Assembly (NCBI GenBank): GCA_964626665.1
Contig: CAZVGK010000047.1
Coordinates: forward strand, 1 to 17,128
Origin: an uncultured Gemmatimonadota bacterium
GTDB lineage: Bacteria > SM23-81 > DAOVCL01
DNA: 17,128 nt
Direction: 5' to 3'
The position numbers and the translations under genes were made by a program. This document shows positions 1,950-8,513 of this stretch, piece after piece; within the stretch, counting starts at the first letter, position 1; the number at the start of each line of letters is the position of its first letter. Under the pieces are notes generated by a model. The model had not been told where the DNA came from and made no database searches. It was given only the letters and a program-made list of their open reading frames with translations.

Positions 1950-2153
1950 ATGAATGACATCACCCTTAAGATCCCTTCCGAAGTAATTATGAAAATCTTA
2001 CGACGAATTCCTCAGAGGCAACTGAGGGAGCTCCAGGGAAAAATCCAGAGGGAGGAGGTAAAATCAGTTCCAGCGGGCTACCTTCTTAAACTCGCTGGCA
2101 TCGCTTCCATCGGAGGAGATGCGGTTAAAGACACGGAAGAAGTATGGCAGTGA
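1950..2153 (+). CDS. Putative antitoxin (VapB-like), 67 aa
   Basis: Small ORF with a strong RBS that overlaps the PIN gene. C-terminus LAGIASIGGDAVKDTEE is typical of small VapB-type partners. Confidence 0.7.
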   Translation: MNDITLKIPSEVIMKILRRIPQRQLRELQGKIQREEVKSVPAGYLLKLAGIASIGGDAVKDTEEVWQ

Positions 2154-2599
2154 ACAAGGCAATCGTAGATGCTAATGTCCTGTTGGCACTGATAGATAAA
2201 GAGGATAAGTGGCACCATAAAGCCGAGACTATTGCGAAGGCTCTAAAAGAAAAAGATTGGGAAGTTGTCTACCTCGATTGTGTGTTGAATGAGGTGGTCT
2301 CAGTTCTCGGTAAAAGGCTTGAAGAACAGAATAAGGTTCACTATTTTACCGGGCTCATAGAAAAACTGGAGGAGACCGTAAGCGAAGAGAAGATCGAGTG
2401 GCTTTACCCCGAAGTGCCGAATCTTTATACCGATATTATGAAATTAGTAAAGGAAAAAGAAGGGAGGCTTAACTTTCACGATGCCTTAATAGCCCTATTT
2501 GCCAAAGAGTATAGCTTAGGCTACATTGTAAGTTTTGACCTGGATTTTGACGGAATAGACTGGATTACAAGAATAAAAAATGAAGAGGAGATAGGATAA
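2144..2599 (+). CDS. vapC: PIN-domain ribonuclease toxin (VapC family)
   Basis: PIN acidic motifs IVDANVL, VLNEVV, LNFHDAL and SFDLDFD. The start could be GTG 2150 (GTGA overlap with the antitoxin stop). Confidence 0.88.
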   Translation: MAVNKAIVDANVLLALIDKEDKWHHKAETIAKALKEKDWEVVYLDCVLNEVVSVLGKRLEEQNKVHYFTGLIEKLEETVSEEKIEWLYPEVPNLYTDIMKLVKEKEGRLNFHDALIALFAKEYSLGYIVSFDLDFDGIDWITRIKNEEEIG

Positions 2600-3079: not shown

Positions 3080-3250
3080 GTGACAGTGTGAAGGGGAAGC
3101 TTGATTTCTGTGAATGGATAGGGAAAGCGATCATAGGTATTTGCATAGAGCTTGTTAGAGTCATATCACTGAGGTGGCACTAAGGAGACAAGGTTTGATC
3201 TGTAGGAGAGCAGCTTTTTATAATTTTATGGACGTCCCCTTATTCCCTTT

Positions 3251-3448
3251 TGCAGAGCGGGGCTCACGAAGCGCGCTACCTGTCATACCTTTCGGCATTC
3301 ATTCGCAACCCATTTGCTGGAAAGCGGATCGGATATCCGTACGTTGCAGGAGCTTTTGGGTCACAAGGATGTGAAAACCACAATGGTTTATACGTAGGTG
3401 TTGAACCGTGGCCCGGTTGGGGTTCGCAGTCCGGCGGACTCCCTGTAA
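3251..3448 (+). pseudogene. intI: Integron integrase remnant (C-terminal ~65 codons with an internal stop)
   Basis: Frame from 3251 reads [64 protein letters not shown]. This holds the tyrosine-recombinase HxxRH, LGH and catalytic Y motifs plus the IntI-typical YT(H)VLNRG..GVRSP.D tail. TAG at 3395-3397 replaces His, and the 5' part is missing. Confidence 0.92.
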
Positions 3449-3595
3449 AGGGGAAGAAAGCGTATTATGCTGATCCATATAAGACCCCTTCTCAATACGA
3501 ATGCGGCACAGAAGCCATTTATAAACAATGACTTGGATGTCGCTCATCCCACGCTTTCCTGAGCATTTTATATTGCAAACTATCTATGACGGGGT

Positions 3596-3721: not shown

Positions 3722-3991
3722 ATGGAGCTTCATGAACTGGTTGTTGAAATGAAATTGTTGGAACGCCGTTTGACTCCTTACGAAGAGAAGTACGGCATCC
3801 TTAGCGAAGACTTCTATAAGGCTTTGATGTCAGGTAAACTGGCAAAATACGATGAATATGATGAAACACGTGCGGATTTCAGCCGTTGGAAGGGGATTTA
3901 CGAAACCTGGCTGCGACGCAAGAAGGCTTATGAGACCCAATTAAAGCAGCGTGATTTAGCCGAAGTCTTGCGCTTTCAGCCTGCGTATTGA
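3722..3991 (+). CDS. TumA-like antitoxin, 89 aa
   Basis: [14 protein letters not shown]....SGKL...DFSRW pattern characteristic of small partners of DUF6516/TumE toxins. GGAGG RBS. Confidence 0.7.
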
Positions 3992-4422
3992 TTATGGAGC
4001 GAAATCTTCTGAGGTCGTTGGACGATAACAGTCGTTTCATAGCCGAGTTGCTTAACCGCCCTGCGGTCAAGCGTTCTACGGTGGTGGTTTGGTCCAGCAG
4101 TCCTTACACGGGGGTGGCCGAAGGGAAAGCCTTCTTCGTGCAAGGTTTCCGGTTGCGGGTGAGGGAGGAGTTGGATTTTGAGACCGGGGTTATAACCTCA
4201 TATGGGTACGAGGTGTATCGGGGTAAAGAGCGGTTGTATTGGTATGATGATTTTCCTCATCCTGATGATCCGACTTTAGCATCAACTTTTCCCCATCATA
4301 AGCATATTCCGCCTGATATAAAGCGTCATCGTGTTCCTGCGCGGGAGATAAGGTTTGATCGTGCCAATTTGCCAGTTGTTATTCAGGAGATTGAGGAGTT
4401 TATAGGTGAGGGGATGACCTAA
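3988..4422 (+). CDS. TumE-like (DUF6516) toxin, ~144 aa
   Basis: YGYEVY...[10 protein letters not shown]...STFPHHKH motif. Overlaps the antitoxin stop; alternative start ATG 3994. Confidence 0.78.
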
Positions 4423-4494
4423 CAACTCGCTCCAGCCGACTGCTTCCTCGCTCGCTTCGCTCGGTCGCAGCGGCTGAGCTCGAAGCCGTTAGGT
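4417..4494 (+). other. Integron attC site, 78 bp
   Basis: R'' ACCTAAC (4417-4423) and R' GTTAGGT (4488-4494) are perfectly complementary. Inner arms CTCCAGCCG and CGGCTGAG pair with one extra-helical base. Central GC-rich palindromic region. Confidence 0.92.
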
Positions 4495-4879
4495 CATGAA
4501 ATTGAATTGCAGACATGTTCGAGAATAGCCCTCAGATGCCGCGACTGAAGCGTAAAACATGAAAGAGAACGCTTGATATTCGATGAATGAAGCTAGAGAT
4601 CCTCCCCCACATTACTACTCTTCGTCATCGCCGTCAACAAAGCCCACGAAGGCACCAACCCAGCAACACTGTCATGACGGAGTTGTGAGAGCAGAAGCAA
4701 GCTTGACGTCATTGAATGTGCCGACGGCAAGCGCCACAACTTGCCAATCAGAACACTTGAAATAGCAGTTGACAATATGTCATATTCAAGCGCAAGATCG
4801 GCTACTACATGCCGAGGATTTATTCATGTGCAAGCACATTTTTACTATTAACAGGGATTCCGTTTTTCAAAAAAGAAAT

Positions 4880-4959
4880 TAAATATTGAAAATGCAAATT
4901 ATTTTCTATCTCATTGCAAAATTGCGATATTTCCTATCTTTAAGCATTTTCAATGTTTA
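4880..4959. promoter_or_regulatory. AT-rich inverted repeat (16-bp arms, 48-nt spacer) upstream of the three-gene operon
   Basis: taaatattgaaaatgc (4880-4895) and gcattttcaatgttta (4944-4959) are 15/16 complementary. Confidence 0.5.
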
Positions 4960-5013
4960 TTTTGAAGACCCAAAAGTGGAATCCCTGATTAAGATAGAAC
5001 GGAGGTGAATATT

Positions 5014-5472
5014 ATGTCATCTGAGTTAGTGTCATCTCAAAGTAATCAAGGGCTTCGCGCTCTCGATCCTGATCTTCCTTTCCTGGCATCAGAGGCTGCA
5101 ATTGATATCGACAATCTGCTCTCAAACAGGTCCAAAGAACTAACGGCCATACGGCGTTTGGCTAGCCGACTGAATAATTCTATTAAACTGGACACTGCTG
5201 GTGGTCCCCCGCGCTCGCTGATGGATCCGGCTATGCTAACCGTACTTGGCGAGGCGATGGGGGAGGCTTTGAAAAACCAGTCTTTGCAGACGGTCGAAGA
5301 TTTGCTTGACGAAGCGACAAAGATAGCCAAAGTCCTATCTAGTGAAGACCTAAGTCAGAGCCCTGTGGAGAGCAAACAGGCGAGGGATTTCTGCGTCGCC
5401 CTCTCAAGGGCTGTAATGGTCTACCACAAGTCAATCCGTGATCTACGCCCGTCGCATCCGTTTCGGAGGTAA
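5014..5472 (+). CDS. Hypothetical, probably all-helical protein (152 aa)
   Basis: SD GGAGGTG at 5001-5007 favours ATG 5014 over GTG 5005. First gene of a tightly packed operon. No family recognised. Confidence 0.75.
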   Translation: MSSELVSSQSNQGLRALDPDLPFLASEAAIDIDNLLSNRSKELTAIRRLASRLNNSIKLDTAGGPPRSLMDPAMLTVLGEAMGEALKNQSLQTVEDLLDEATKIAKVLSSEDLSQSPVESKQARDFCVALSRAVMVYHKSIRDLRPSHPFRR

Positions 5473-5474
5473 AG

Positions 5475-6719
5475 GTGTCCACAATTGTGCATGCACGGAA
5501 GCGGCTCAACGCCGTTCTAAGTGAGATCGATCGGCTGAAACAGTCTGAGTTCCCTTACGCACATCCACGCGATGGGCTGGAACTTTTGGATGGGATGTTC
5601 AAAAAGCAGCAATCCGTGCTGGGAAAGGTATCTCCAAGCGCACCAGCCAACGTGACTCATAACGCGTGTAGCACATCTCTATATCAACTACATGTCTACG
5701 TTCCCATTCTCGGTTTCATACTTCGTTCGACCAATGTTCGCAATGCGTTCGAAGCTTACCCTCTTTTGCTGCGACTTGCTCAAAGTGTCATGGGAACCGA
5801 CACGAAGTTGATCGTATCGTCCGAATGGGAATTTTCACCCTTCGTTTATCGGTCTATGACTGACTTACCTGGCTTCGTTCTTATCGGCTTGCCTGCTCCA
5901 GAATCGTCCAACCCGTTGCTCATCCCCTTGGCCGGACATGAACTGGGGCACTCCGTTTGGGAGACCGAACGCTTCTCGGCTAAGTTCGAGAAACAAATTG
6001 AGGATGGTATCTTGGGTGAGCTGAAAGGTAATCGGTGGCAGGACTATCTGTCGCTTTACCCGCAATCCAAGAAGTCGGATCTTGATGGGACCGATATGTT
6101 CGTACGGTCTACCTGGCTGCCAGCCTACACTTGGGCATTATTGCAATCCGAGGAGATATTCTGCGATTTCTTCGGGTTGTGCCTTTTCGCAGAATCATAC
6201 CTACACGCCTTTGCTTATCTGATTTCTCCAGGCACATCCGGCCAACGCCCGTTACGCTACCCCAACATCACGCGTCGCATAGCTCATCTTGTTGACGCGG
6301 CCAAGAAAATGGCAGTATCGGTTCCGCCAGGATTCAAGTCGGACTTCGCAGATGAAATCGAACCGGTGGAACCAGCGACAAAACTGCTTGTATCAATCGC
6401 CGACACTGTGTCAGACTCCCTTGCGTCTAACCTGATTAGACTAGCGCAGGACTTCGCGAAAGAAAAAACAGTTCCCACACGGAATCTCGCGCAGGTGTCG
6501 GACATCTACGACAAGTTCCGCAAGATGATCGTGCCGACTTCGGCGCAACAGTCCCTTACAGATATATTGAATGCTGGATGGAACTGCGATCTGGAACCAG
6601 ATCTTTGGAAGAATGTTCCTCAGGTCAAGCCTGAGCAGAGGGACCGTATTCTGCGGGATCTCATACTTAAAAGCATGGAGGTCTCTGAAGTCCATGAACG
6701 AACGATGGAATCACCATGA
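5475..6719 (+). CDS. HExxH zinc-metallopeptidase-like protein (gluzincin pattern), 414 aa
   Basis: HELGH at 5937-5951, a downstream EEIFCD (third-ligand E..xD pattern) at 6150 and YPNITRRI resembling the M48-type HPxxxxR motif. SD GGAGG before the GTG. Confidence 0.7.
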   Translation: MSTIVHARKRLNAVLSEIDRLKQSEFPYAHPRDGLELLDGMFKKQQSVLGKVSPSAPANVTHNACSTSLYQLHVYVPILGFILRSTNVRNAFEAYPLLLRLAQSVMGTDTKLIVSSEWEFSPFVYRSMTDLPGFVLIGLPAPESSNPLLIPLAGHELGHSVWETERFSAKFEKQIEDGILGELKGNRWQDYLSLYPQSKKSDLDGTDMFVRSTWLPAYTWALLQSEEIFCDFFGLCLFAESYLHAFAYLISPGTSGQRPLRYPNITRRIAHLVDAAKKMAVSVPPGFKSDFADEIEPVEPATKLLVSIADTVSDSLASNLIRLAQDFAKEKTVPTRNLAQVSDIYDKFRKMIVPTSAQQSLTDILNAGWNCDLEPDLWKNVPQVKPEQRDRILRDLILKSMEVSEVHERTMESP

Positions 6720-7330
6720 TCATTAAAGCTGCACAGATCGCACGCGAATTGAAAAATCCGACGAATCCAGACGATCCATTAGTCATTACACCAAGGCCGG
6801 ATTTAGAGGAACTCCAGAAGTCAGGCGCTGCTTCTGTGGACATACGGCTGGGTTGCTGGTTCTTGGCGTGCCGACCAAGCAGAACAGGACTTCTTGACGT
6901 ATACGAGAATCAAGCTGATGTGCCAAGCGAGGCTAAGCTGACCAAGTCTTATTACGTGCCGTTTGCGGAAGGATTTGTCCTACACCCTAAAGCTTTCGTG
7001 CTTGGGGTGACGTTAGAATGGATTCGGCTACCGGCTGATCGCTCGGCCATTGTCATTGGACGGTCCTCATGGGGAAGACATGGGCTAATCATCGCGACAG
7101 CCACAGGCGTCCATCCAGGTTTTACTGGGTGCCTCACGCTCGAACTCTCTAACATCGGGGAGATCCCCATTATGATAAAGCCTGGAACCACAATTTGTCA
7201 GATATTCATCCACGAAGTGGCAGGTGGAGATCCCAAACTCGTTGATCGAAGTTCCTTTGTTGGCAGAAGGAAACCCACGCTTGGGGCAATTGAACTGGAT
7301 GAAACAGCTAAACGGTTGGCAAAAGGATGA
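6716..7330 (+). CDS. dcd: dCTP deaminase (trimeric dUTPase superfamily), variant
   Basis: Motifs ASVDIRLG, FVLHPKAFVLGVTLEWIRLP, GRSSWGRHGL, PGFTGCLTLELSN and PGTTICQI. ATGA overlap with the upstream gene. Confidence 0.9.
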   Translation: MIIKAAQIARELKNPTNPDDPLVITPRPDLEELQKSGAASVDIRLGCWFLACRPSRTGLLDVYENQADVPSEAKLTKSYYVPFAEGFVLHPKAFVLGVTLEWIRLPADRSAIVIGRSSWGRHGLIIATATGVHPGFTGCLTLELSNIGEIPIMIKPGTTICQIFIHEVAGGDPKLVDRSSFVGRRKPTLGAIELDETAKRLAKG

Positions 7331-7403
7331 CCCGTTGCGCTATTGGTAAGGCAAGAGGGACGCTGGTAAGAAAGTAAGTTGAGATGAGAAGAACGCCATA
7401 AGT

Positions 7404-7651
7404 GGGTCAGGTCTTGCTTTTTGCCATCCTTGAGGCTAACCTGCTTACCCTTGAGTAGTGAATCCTCAAAAGTTCCCCGACTTCCCTAAGTTTCTCCAGC
7501 AAATCCCGGAGGAGGGTTTTGTAACGGCCCCGAAAGAGATGTCTTGCCTTACCGTGCCGCAGATTGAACCTCTGGGTGTAACCCCTAAGGAATAGGTTTG
7601 GAGTGCTGTGACTCCTGTCACAGCATGCGTCAACAGGAGTTGACGCACTCC
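7404..7651. mobile_element. Second, incomplete copy of element B (left TIR plus REP doublet, no right TIR)
   Basis: gggtcaggtcttgctttttgccatccttgaggcta matches 2706-2740. Identical REP doublet at 7600-7651. Longer internal segment than the first copy. Confidence 0.75.
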
Positions 7652-7670
7652 ATATAATTTGATGGGACCC

Positions 7671-8513
7671 TCACTTTCCTACCAATCCCCTGATCACCTC
7701 CATATTCCTCAGGTCGTCCTGATCTGACTTGCGGGGGGTCTCCATTATCCCCGGGAGGTCCTTAAGTTTTGGATGGTTTACTATCCTTCTAAACCCCTCC
7801 AGTCCAATATATCCCTCCCCGATATGCCAATGTCTGTCTGACCGGGAGCCACAAGGAGTCTTGGAGTCATTGAGGTGAAGGAGGTAAAGCTTTTGCCTGC
7901 CAATCAATTGGTCAAGCTCCTGCAAGGCCTTTTCCAACCCTTGAGGGGAGGAAAGGTCATATCCAGCCTCAAACAGGTGGGCGGTATCTAAGCAGATCCC
8001 TATCCTCTGGCTTTGGAGGATCCCCGCAAAGATGAGCTGAAATGATTCGAACCTATCGCCGAGCTCGGTTCCTGCCCCTGCCGTGTTCTCCAGCAGGAGG
8101 ATGACCCCATTTTCCACCAATTGGAAGGTCTCATTGATCCCCTGAGCAATCCTCTCTATGGCCCGCTTTCTATCCCTTCCCAGGCTGCTGCCCACATGCA
8201 TGACCAGATACTTAGCACCAACGAGATCGGCCCGGCGCAGGTCCGCGCAGAGGGAATCCAACGAGCGGCGGTAGGATTCTGGTTGAGGATTGGCTAAGTT
8301 GGGAAGATAGGGCATATGCACCACCACGGGCTCTATCCCCTCCTGGGAGATTCCGGCGCGGAACCCCTCCACCTCCTCCGGGGGCAGGGGAGAGTATTTC
8401 CATCCCCGGGGATTGCGGGAGAATATCTGGATGGCCTCACAGCCCTTGGCCTTGGCCCTGGGGGGCACCTTGGAGAGGCCACCAGCGATGGAGATGTGAA
8501 AGCCAAATCTCAT
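7671..8513 (-). CDS. nfo: Endonuclease IV (AP endonuclease 2)
   Basis: GFHISIAGG, QIFSRNPR, VHMPYLPNL, HVGS, LENTAG, CLDTAHLF, HLNDSK, DRHWHIGEG and METP zinc-ligand motifs. Confidence 0.96.
   Translation of the reverse strand: MRFGFHISIAGGLSKVPPRAKAKGCEAIQIFSRNPRGWKYSPLPPEEVEGFRAGISQEGIEPVVVHMPYLPNLANPQPESYRRSLDSLCADLRRADLVGAKYLVMHVGSSLGRDRKRAIERIAQGINETFQLVENGVILLLENTAGAGTELGDRFESFQLIFAGILQSQRIGICLDTAHLFEAGYDLSSPQGLEKALQELDQLIGRQKLYLLHLNDSKTPCGSRSDRHWHIGEGYIGLEGFRRIVNHPKLKDLPGIMETPRKSDQDDLRNMEVIRGLVGK

Follow-up and report, generated by a model that had tools for sequence, protein, structure and literature searches.

The window analysed here is the entire 17,128-bp contig CAZVGK010000047.1, which belongs to a 3.17-Mb, 99.65% complete genome of an uncultured Gemmatimonadota bacterium. 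It carries three co-oriented genes, which we designate A, B and C, encoding a small helical protein, a zincin-like protein and a protein of the trimeric Dcd/dUTPase fold (Table 1). Among sequencing runs, no RNA data set containing this DNA was listed; the runs that contain it are salt-marsh metagenomes, which may be its source. The three genes had been described in an earlier note on this DNA as a tightly packed set, and the open reading frame (ORF) coordinates agree: the TAA stop of A at 5470-5472 leaves a gap of 2 bp before B, and the start of C overlaps the stop of B as ATGA. For A, an alternative longer reading from a GTG start at 5005 was judged less likely. The triad recurs as a unit that is rare, mobile and found in many bacterial phyla, and we argue below that it may form a conflict module acting on the nucleotide pool.

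Table 1. Features of the window, with coordinates counted from its first base
Feature	Position	Strand	Description
Gene A	5014-5472	+	152 aa; ATG eight bases past GGAGG (5001-5005)
Gene B	5475-6719	+	414 aa; GTG start, five bases past GGAGG (5465-5469)
Gene C	6716-7330	+	204 aa; start overlaps the stop of B as ATGA (6716-6719)
Leader between attC-like site and gene A	4495-5013	+	AT-rich, 0.40 GC
attC-like hairpin	4417-4494	.	Complementary RYYYAAC and GTTRRRY boxes; closes the TumA/TumE-like cassette
Integron-integrase-like fragment, broken	3254-3445 (ORF 3250-3531)	+	TIGR02249 positions 252-315
PIN/VapC gene	2144-2599		Paired with a 67-aa ORF (1950-2153)
TumA/TumE-like pair	3722-3991 and 3988-4422
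Dispersed-repeat copies	7401-7662	.	Right edge of the variable region; 58 blastn matches on many contigs

We obtained 80 loci by scanning one genome per species; they span the Desulfobacterota, Nitrospirota, Alpha- and Gammaproteobacteria, Planctomycetota and Verrucomicrobiota, as well as the Acidobacteriota, Actinomycetota, Gemmatimonadota, Fimbriimonadaceae, Hydrogenedentales and Ca. Electryonea. With tblastn, C was found directly 3' of B in 72 of the 80 loci; of the 72 that extend 650 nt or more beyond B, 71 have it, the exception (L076) being a fragment of B only. A was detected by tblastn in 49 of the 80, and a profile built from those copies recognises the upstream ORF in 73 of the 77 loci with at least 500 nt 5' of B. 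Three of the four loci missed by the profile have A-like frames, one of which is frameshifted, and this brings the total with an A-like frame to 76/77. The co-occurrence of the three genes, which the earlier note had put forward as a point to check, thus holds nearly everywhere that there is room for them. Median intergenic gaps are 9 and 14 nt, and the same A-B-C order was found in a further alphaproteobacterial genome. Compared pairwise, copies of A share 23% identity on average, those of B 35% and those of C 50%, which makes A the fast-evolving member and C the most constrained. Between Desulfobacterota, Nitrospirota, Methylobacter and others, the identity of B is 57-64%. The module is also carried by 10 Rhizobium conjugative plasmids. 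Within 401 sampled alphaproteobacterial genomes, B occurs in two (one of them the query's own), each with a strong match to C adjacent. No match to the module was found in 50,697 GenBank phage records, and a scan of IMG/VR gave three loci, each with B and C; two of them have the A-like frame, which the edge of the locus truncates in the third.

The assignment of C to the trimeric-fold dCTP deaminase family, made in the earlier note from sequence, stands on two model matches: PF22769 (E 1.7e-30, 106.5 bits against a cut-off of 27) and TIGR02274 (106.8 bits against a cut-off of 92.8, model positions 14-155 of 180). C keeps the motifs GRSSxGRxGL (R116, S117, S118 and R121) and GCLTLE (E143). Of 63 module copies, at least 90% retain them, and six housekeeping Dcds have the same residues at the positions aligned with R116-S117-S118...R121 and E143. 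We take the Ser/Arg motif and the Glu to be catalytic, by their roles in E. coli Dcd. The GRSSxGRxGL and TLE motifs are thus common to C and to housekeeping enzymes of the same fold family, but canonical alphaproteobacterial Dcds score 188-194 bits and match TIGR02274 from position 2 to 180, whereas the match of C stops at position 155 of 180, short of the lid. Where housekeeping Dcds have a C-terminal KYQxQ lid, the alignment of C has GRRKPTLG (GRRKPxLG; a conserved G-x-R...P segment) and a tail of about 20 aa. C matches neither PF00383 nor NF041025 and so gave no sign of the zinc cytidine-deaminase fold; a ComEB-like protein of the host does match NF041025, and the model was therefore present in the library. 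In a FastTree phylogeny of 63 module and 10 housekeeping Dcds, built after four duplicate loci and ORFs outside 185-260 aa had been set aside, the module sequences form a clade that excludes all housekeeping sequences (support 0.673, stem of 1.26 substitutions/site). The phylogeny proposed in the earlier note accordingly sets this Dcd, which also has an accessory distribution, apart from the 10 housekeeping enzymes compared.

B was predicted in the same note to resemble HExxH metallopeptidases. The motif is present as HELGH at residues 155-159, and the pattern of a gluzincin, HExxH with a downstream Glu as putative ligand, is conserved throughout the family: H155, E156, H159, E227 and D231 are invariant in 79 sequences and in 50/50 of a second set. 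No Pfam, NCBIfam or PADLOC model matches B. Its relatives are numerous, with 1207 of similar length in a collection clustered at 90% identity; among the 120 listed, none has a Pfam domain and every name shown is "hypothetical protein". A search with a profile of the family returned 1837 clusters (50% identity) at E<=1e-3 and 703 at E<=1e-30, nearly all of the 150 listed spanning 400-460 aa. Longer forms of 726-2070 aa were looked for and none was found, which is weak evidence. An apparent B-C fusion, a 620-aa ORF in a metagenome-assembled genome (MAG) of the Verrucomicrobiae (L025, 6001-7863), was rejected as read-through after a frame change; it is probably an assembly or frameshift artefact, since the end of B is out of frame.

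The AlphaFold2 (AF2) model of B has a mean predicted local distance difference test (pLDDT) of 92.8 and a predicted template modelling score (pTM) of 0.91. It consists, in order, of an N-terminal three-helix bundle, two strands, the HExxH helix (147-164), a helix at 208-250 that bears Q224, E226, E227, C230 and D231, and a helical C-terminal domain. Against the ESM Atlas, the core at 88-270 resembles M48/M56 models in 7 of 10 rows (template modelling score, TM, 0.55-0.58 over 132-137 residues), which lies below the bar for naming. M48/M56 zincins (HtpX, BlaR1/MecR1) and Lit share with B the HExxH motif, the Glu on a downstream helix and the topology of two strands, active-site helix and Glu helix, but B differs from them in its flanking helical domains, its dedicated partner A and the lack of any sequence-level match. 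M48/M56 sensor proteases and Lit are signal-triggered proteases. Among the feature matches of B in the ESM Atlas are clusters with Peptidase_U49 in 20-38% of their members, below the tool's significance bar. No match was found between B and PF01435, PF05569, PF10463, PF06114 or the PADLOC capP model, and the B profile has four matches at E<=10 among PDB sequences, none of them a peptidase. A search for PF10463 in 251 alphaproteobacterial genomes found nothing and is uninformative, because the control genomes were equally silent. With no match to a sequence family or solved structure and a weak likeness to M48/M56 models, we leave B as a zincin-like protein of a so far unclassified family and assign it to none of M48, M56, M78 and U49. 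The motif and the TM of 0.55-0.58 suggest that it may be proteolytic.

Gene A matches no Pfam, PADLOC or NCBIfam model. Its AF2 model is a five-helix bundle (pLDDT 89.7), a search for structural relatives of which found none, and its near-invariant residues are limited to A29, F126 and C127, with an HPxRR C-terminus in many copies. Modelling of A together with B gave an ipSAE of 0.83 in two runs and 0.80 in a third, compared with 0.00 for the best of three controls. In calibration, 58 of 80 solved complexes attained the score mark, as did 2 of 110 mismatched pairs; these counts are approximate for the A-B model, for which we used our own alignments. The runs share at least 78% of their contacts, with a partner pLDDT of at least 80. 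The interface comprises residues 17-42, 71-79, 90-97 and 124-146 of A and 45-74, 128-130, 172, 176, 206-223 and 259-261 of B, that is, the N-terminal bundle of B and the elements flanking its catalytic helices. This mode of contact suggests a stably bound regulatory subunit rather than a substrate peptide in extended form. Three cysteines are conserved in the two proteins: A C127 in 47/50 (5392-5394), B C65 in 39/50 (5667-5669) and B C230 in 49/50 (6162-6164). The three loci without A C127 are all without B C65 as well, a pattern that is no statistical test because the loci are kin. In the predicted complex, residues 63-67 of B touch residues 124-132 of A, and a disulfide or metal switch between the proteins is possible.

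Comparison with other genomes points to an accessory gene set. The module and the Dcd/dUTPase family are both absent from 2/2 same-genus and 4/4 same-phylum genomes, and the family is present in 23 of 24 more distant ones. The nfo-tatC segment is conserved in the two same-genus genomes (84% and 78% nucleotide identity), and synteny with them stops at the end of nfo, at ~7679. A separate housekeeping dcd, which the earlier note suggested looking for, was found in other hosts: in 5/5 examined, the module Dcd is additional to a housekeeping Dcd and/or dut. For this host the answer is mixed, in that C is its only Dcd/dUTPase gene, but this is offset by the absence of the family from the lineage and by the presence of other genes for dUMP and thymidylate synthesis, a ComEB-like dCMP deaminase and thyX (thyA was not found). 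The deaminase scores 124.8 bits with TIGR02571, below the equivalog cut-off, lies directly after glyA and overlaps its end, and has same-size ORFs in both same-genus genomes; it plausibly provides a Dcd-independent route to dUMP. Searches of the host genome found neither a dimeric dUTPase nor another trimeric one, and did find uracil-DNA glycosylase (UDG) and Nfo. The lineage, then, lacks a trimeric Dcd/dUTPase and has thyX, UDG and the ComEB-like gene (whole host genome; L126, 1489-1938).

To describe the surroundings of the module elsewhere, we scanned the two closest ORFs on either side (202 ORFs in 62 loci). The neighbours share no common family, and their Pfam matches are diverse, including both housekeeping enzymes and integrases and transposases. 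PADLOC models matched capP four times and capH, mad8 (of MADS), subtilase and caspase twice each, with single matches to AbiEii, a type IV restriction endonuclease (mREase IV), HEC-06, ThsB, SoFic, PD-T4-3, PDC-S66 and PDC-S04, and to several methyltransferases. In 11 alphaproteobacterial loci (L057, L059, L063, L065, L066, L067, L069, L070, L071, L078 and L081), a gene of ~115 aa that belongs to no known family lies directly 5' of A; in six of these it is preceded by a co-oriented CapP-like M78 gene, which forms a five-gene operon. The upstream CapP-like genes match PADLOC capP in five tested loci (E 2e-16 to 3e-14), and that of L078 carries an N-terminal helix-turn-helix domain. According to a preprint, DNA damage leads CapH/CapP to derepress defence operons, and other defence systems are accompanied by fused forms (10.1101/2022.04.27.489752). 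The six loci, with a CapP-like M78 gene two genes 5' of A, therefore recall the CapH/CapP, ImmR/ImmA and DdrO/IrrE pairs, but regulators of this type are subclade add-ons, none lies in the window, and B itself is without a PF06114 match. On the Rhizobium phaseoli plasmid pRetR611c (L093), RefSeq labels the triad hypothetical, hypothetical and dcd, and places it between a Fic pair and genes for an S8 peptidase, a trypsin-like peptidase and an AAA ATPase. The latter three (10040-17212, the S8 peptidase of 930 aa) stand directly 3' of the triad and resemble another conflict system.

In the window itself, the right-hand neighbours of C are on the opposite strand and comprise nfo, tatC, the rnf operon and a gene for a beta-propeller protein; the earlier description of a setting outside nucleotide metabolism is thus accurate. 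So is its report of two toxin-antitoxin (TA) modules nearby, since two TA-like pairs, PIN/VapC and TumA/TumE-like, lie upstream. The latter pair has weak PADLOC matches to the candidate system PDC-M44A/B (E 6.8e-05 and 1.8e-04). The triad had also been placed directly behind an integron attC. An attC-like site does exist: its 7-mers ACCTAAC/GTTAGGT are fully complementary, and its single strand folds at -23.9 kcal/mol (z -3.81), a value equalled by 0/200 shuffles. This sole candidate in the 17-kb window is, however, separated from A by 520 bp rather than adjacent to it. The leader that fills this space has nested inverted repeats at 4852-4867/4972-4987 and 4876-4895/4944-4963, with arms of 16 and 20 nt; they lie just 5' of the ribosome-binding site of gene A. 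These repeats may be an operator or a structured leader. Scans for promoters and terminators gave nothing decisive, with a single weak promoter-like match at 4757-4786, and an Rfam scan of the window matched no family.

The integrase-like fragment in the window covers 64 residues with one internal TAG and scores 109.1 bits against a family cut-off of 265. The host genome contains 23 integron-integrase-like matches (on contigs including C52, C59, C2, C5 and C3), none of which is above the TIGR02249 cut-off; contig C52 carries a near full-length integrase-like ORF of 370 aa, likewise below it. A second attC-like pair of ends is present at C2:183456-183581. Because there is a lone attC-like site, none was found 3' of C (7300-7700 searched) and the integrase-like sequence in the window is a broken fragment, the region looks like a decayed integron-like array in which the triad has no cassette borders. 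Direct repeats at 2703-2854 and 7401-7662 were considered as island ends and rejected, since they are dispersed genome-wide (58 matches). They include a 58-nt double-hairpin unit, at 7598-7655 and 2790-2854, that has ~50 copies genome-wide, and further repeat copies lie at 7404-7493 and 2703-2783. A 145-nt repeat occurs at 42-186 and 1699-1843 (51 genome matches), with a 352-aa ORF between its copies (494-1552) that matches no Pfam, PADLOC or NCBIfam model, and the palindrome AAAAATGGGAAGTGTCCCCATTTTT occurs at 163-187, 1820-1844 and 2939-2963 (30 genome matches). These dispersed repeat families punctuate the variable region in the manner of cassette separators.

The earlier note recognised no named system in this architecture. 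In keeping with that, A, B and C match 0 families of PADLOC-DB v2.0.0 at E<=0.01, and no description of a Dcd-fold deaminase with a zincin partner was found in the literature searched, although supplementary tables of candidate systems, which lay outside the search, may list one. The note was also right that the described defensive dCTP deaminase is of a different fold: this is a 576-aa protein in which an N-terminal kinase domain is joined to a zinc cytidine-deaminase domain (10.1101/2021.04.26.441389). The AvcD-type enzyme and C would share the same predicted chemistry and logic, in which deamination of dCTP during infection starves the phage, and both are accessory, with defence genes among their neighbours. 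The former is a single protein, however, whereas C is a 204-aa protein of the Dcd/dUTPase fold, has no match to cytidine-deaminase models and always comes with two further genes. The module would then be an independent invention of the dCTP-depletion strategy, since the known enzyme combines a zinc cytidine deaminase with a kinase.

From the computed gene arrangement, conservation of the triad, family and motif assignments, accessory and mobile distribution and predicted A-B contact, we propose that A-B-C is a self-contained mobile conflict module, most probably of an anti-phage or abortive-infection type that works through loss of dCTP and a flood of dUTP; we give this proposal an even chance of being correct. 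We infer the enzymatic activity of C, the proteolytic activity of B, the trigger, the order of events and phage protection, as follows. A, a rapidly evolving helical subunit seated on the N-terminal bundle of B beside the catalytic core, would hold B inactive. B would be a soluble HExxH...E zincin with an M48/M56-like core between helical N- and C-terminal domains. On a signal of infection or DNA damage, A would be removed or altered, and B would become free to activate C, either through processing of the atypical C-terminus of C or through its release. Once released, C, the putative effector, which keeps the catalytic Ser, Arg and Glu residues and is without the canonical lid, would turn dCTP into dUTP. 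Replication would be starved of dCTP while the cell was flooded with dUTP, and uracil-containing DNA might be cut in this host, because it has no dUTPase of the two families searched but does have UDG and Nfo. The gradient of identity from A (23%) through B (35%) to C (50%) fits a variable sensor or inhibitor and a conserved effector. The more specific reading, that this is a new and widespread anti-phage family in which a Dcd/dUTPase-fold deaminase poisons the deoxynucleoside triphosphate (dNTP) pool under the control of a zincin protease from a hitherto unclassified family and a hypervariable, trans-acting, prodomain-like inhibitor or sensor, possibly with a Cys switch, is one we hold only tentatively, at less than even confidence.

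Several observations weigh against this proposal. The defensive role is read from sequences and models, and complex modelling covered the A-B pair only. Because the canonical lid is missing, C may have no activity, use a different substrate or function as a binding protein, and the clade that separates it from housekeeping enzymes has modest support in a comparison with 10 such sequences only. For B, a comparison with E. coli Lit using hhalign aligned 25 columns around HExxH only, with a probability of 0.67%; 0 of 79 family members match a peptidase family among the 25 most-matched families listed (E<=5); and Foldseek returned 0 matches in PDB and in the viral models of BFVD at E<=0.001. As the sole Dcd/dUTPase-family match in its genome, C may make a metabolic contribution in its own host. 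The defence genes near the module are suggestive only, being raw counts with no background set, and many neighbours are ordinary housekeeping genes (phosphofructokinase, CTP synthase, gyrB). The identity matrices of A, B and C are correlated (Mantel r 0.87-0.88), which is no independent proof of a joint function since it is expected for any linked genes. Separately, the integron framing of the earlier note is weak, as the triad has neither the 3' attC nor the nearby intact intI of an integron gene cassette.

Some of these points would fit a reversal of roles, with B as a Lit-like killing protease, C as a nucleotide sensor or accessory protein that responds to dCTP, dUTP or phage-modified dCTP, and A as the inhibitor of B. 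B is the largest component and its architecture is as constant as that of C, A is predicted to bind it, C has no canonical lid, and the feature matches of B include the clusters with 20-38% Peptidase_U49 members. Trimeric dUTPases can, moreover, act as signalling partners of the Stl repressor. Nevertheless, at least 90% of 63 copies of C retain the complete deaminase Ser/Arg/Glu motif, which would be unexpected for a pure binder, and the U49 link falls below the significance bar of the tool just as the Lit alignment stays at 0.67%, so we regard this reading as unlikely. We find it equally improbable that the triad is a TA-like addiction module that stabilises plasmids or islands, with C as toxin and A or A-B as antidote, and that it has no function specific to phage. 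The 80 loci lie mostly on chromosomes, many of them next to housekeeping genes; a simple TA pair has no need of a conserved 414-aa zincin; and the CapP-like regulators point to damage- or infection-induced expression. These arguments are set against the presence of the module on 10 large conjugative plasmids, its position next to TA pairs (VapC and TumE in the window, Fic on a plasmid) and its compact, overlapping genes.

A metabolic role, in which C supplies dUTP or dUMP for thymidylate and A and B are assembly or regulatory factors, would account for C being the sole Dcd/dUTPase gene in a 99.65% complete genome and for the name dcd given by RefSeq to the Rhizobium copy. Yet the module is absent from 6/6 same-genus and same-phylum genomes, which carry a ComEB-like dCMP deaminase as the host does; the host has thyX, and its ComEB-like gene directly follows glyA; 5/5 other hosts have housekeeping Dcd and dut that make the module redundant; and it occurs in 2/401 Alphaproteobacteria and has no nucleotide-metabolism neighbours. 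This role thus appears quite improbable. Least credible of all, in our estimate, is an offensive module of a phage or mobile element, serving for example deoxyuridine (dU)-containing DNA or counter-defence. Phage Dcd-like enzymes reportedly support dU-DNA, and three IMG/VR loci each have B and C, but three such loci and 0 matches in 50,697 GenBank phage records stand against hosts that are otherwise chromosomes and plasmids.

If the proposed conflict module is real, immunity acting on the nucleotide pool arose at least twice, from unrelated deaminase folds, and the housekeeping Dcd fold, not so far known to be tied to immunity, was turned into a weapon. Two protein families would be new, that of A and that of B (~1800 clusters at 50% identity), and the module would offer a tractable three-part switch composed of a sensor or inhibitor, a protease and an effector. 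It would also bear on annotation, as copies labelled "dCTP deaminase" and accompanied by two hypothetical proteins would mislead metabolic reconstruction; this MAG, whose lineage is otherwise without Dcd or dUTPase, is an example.

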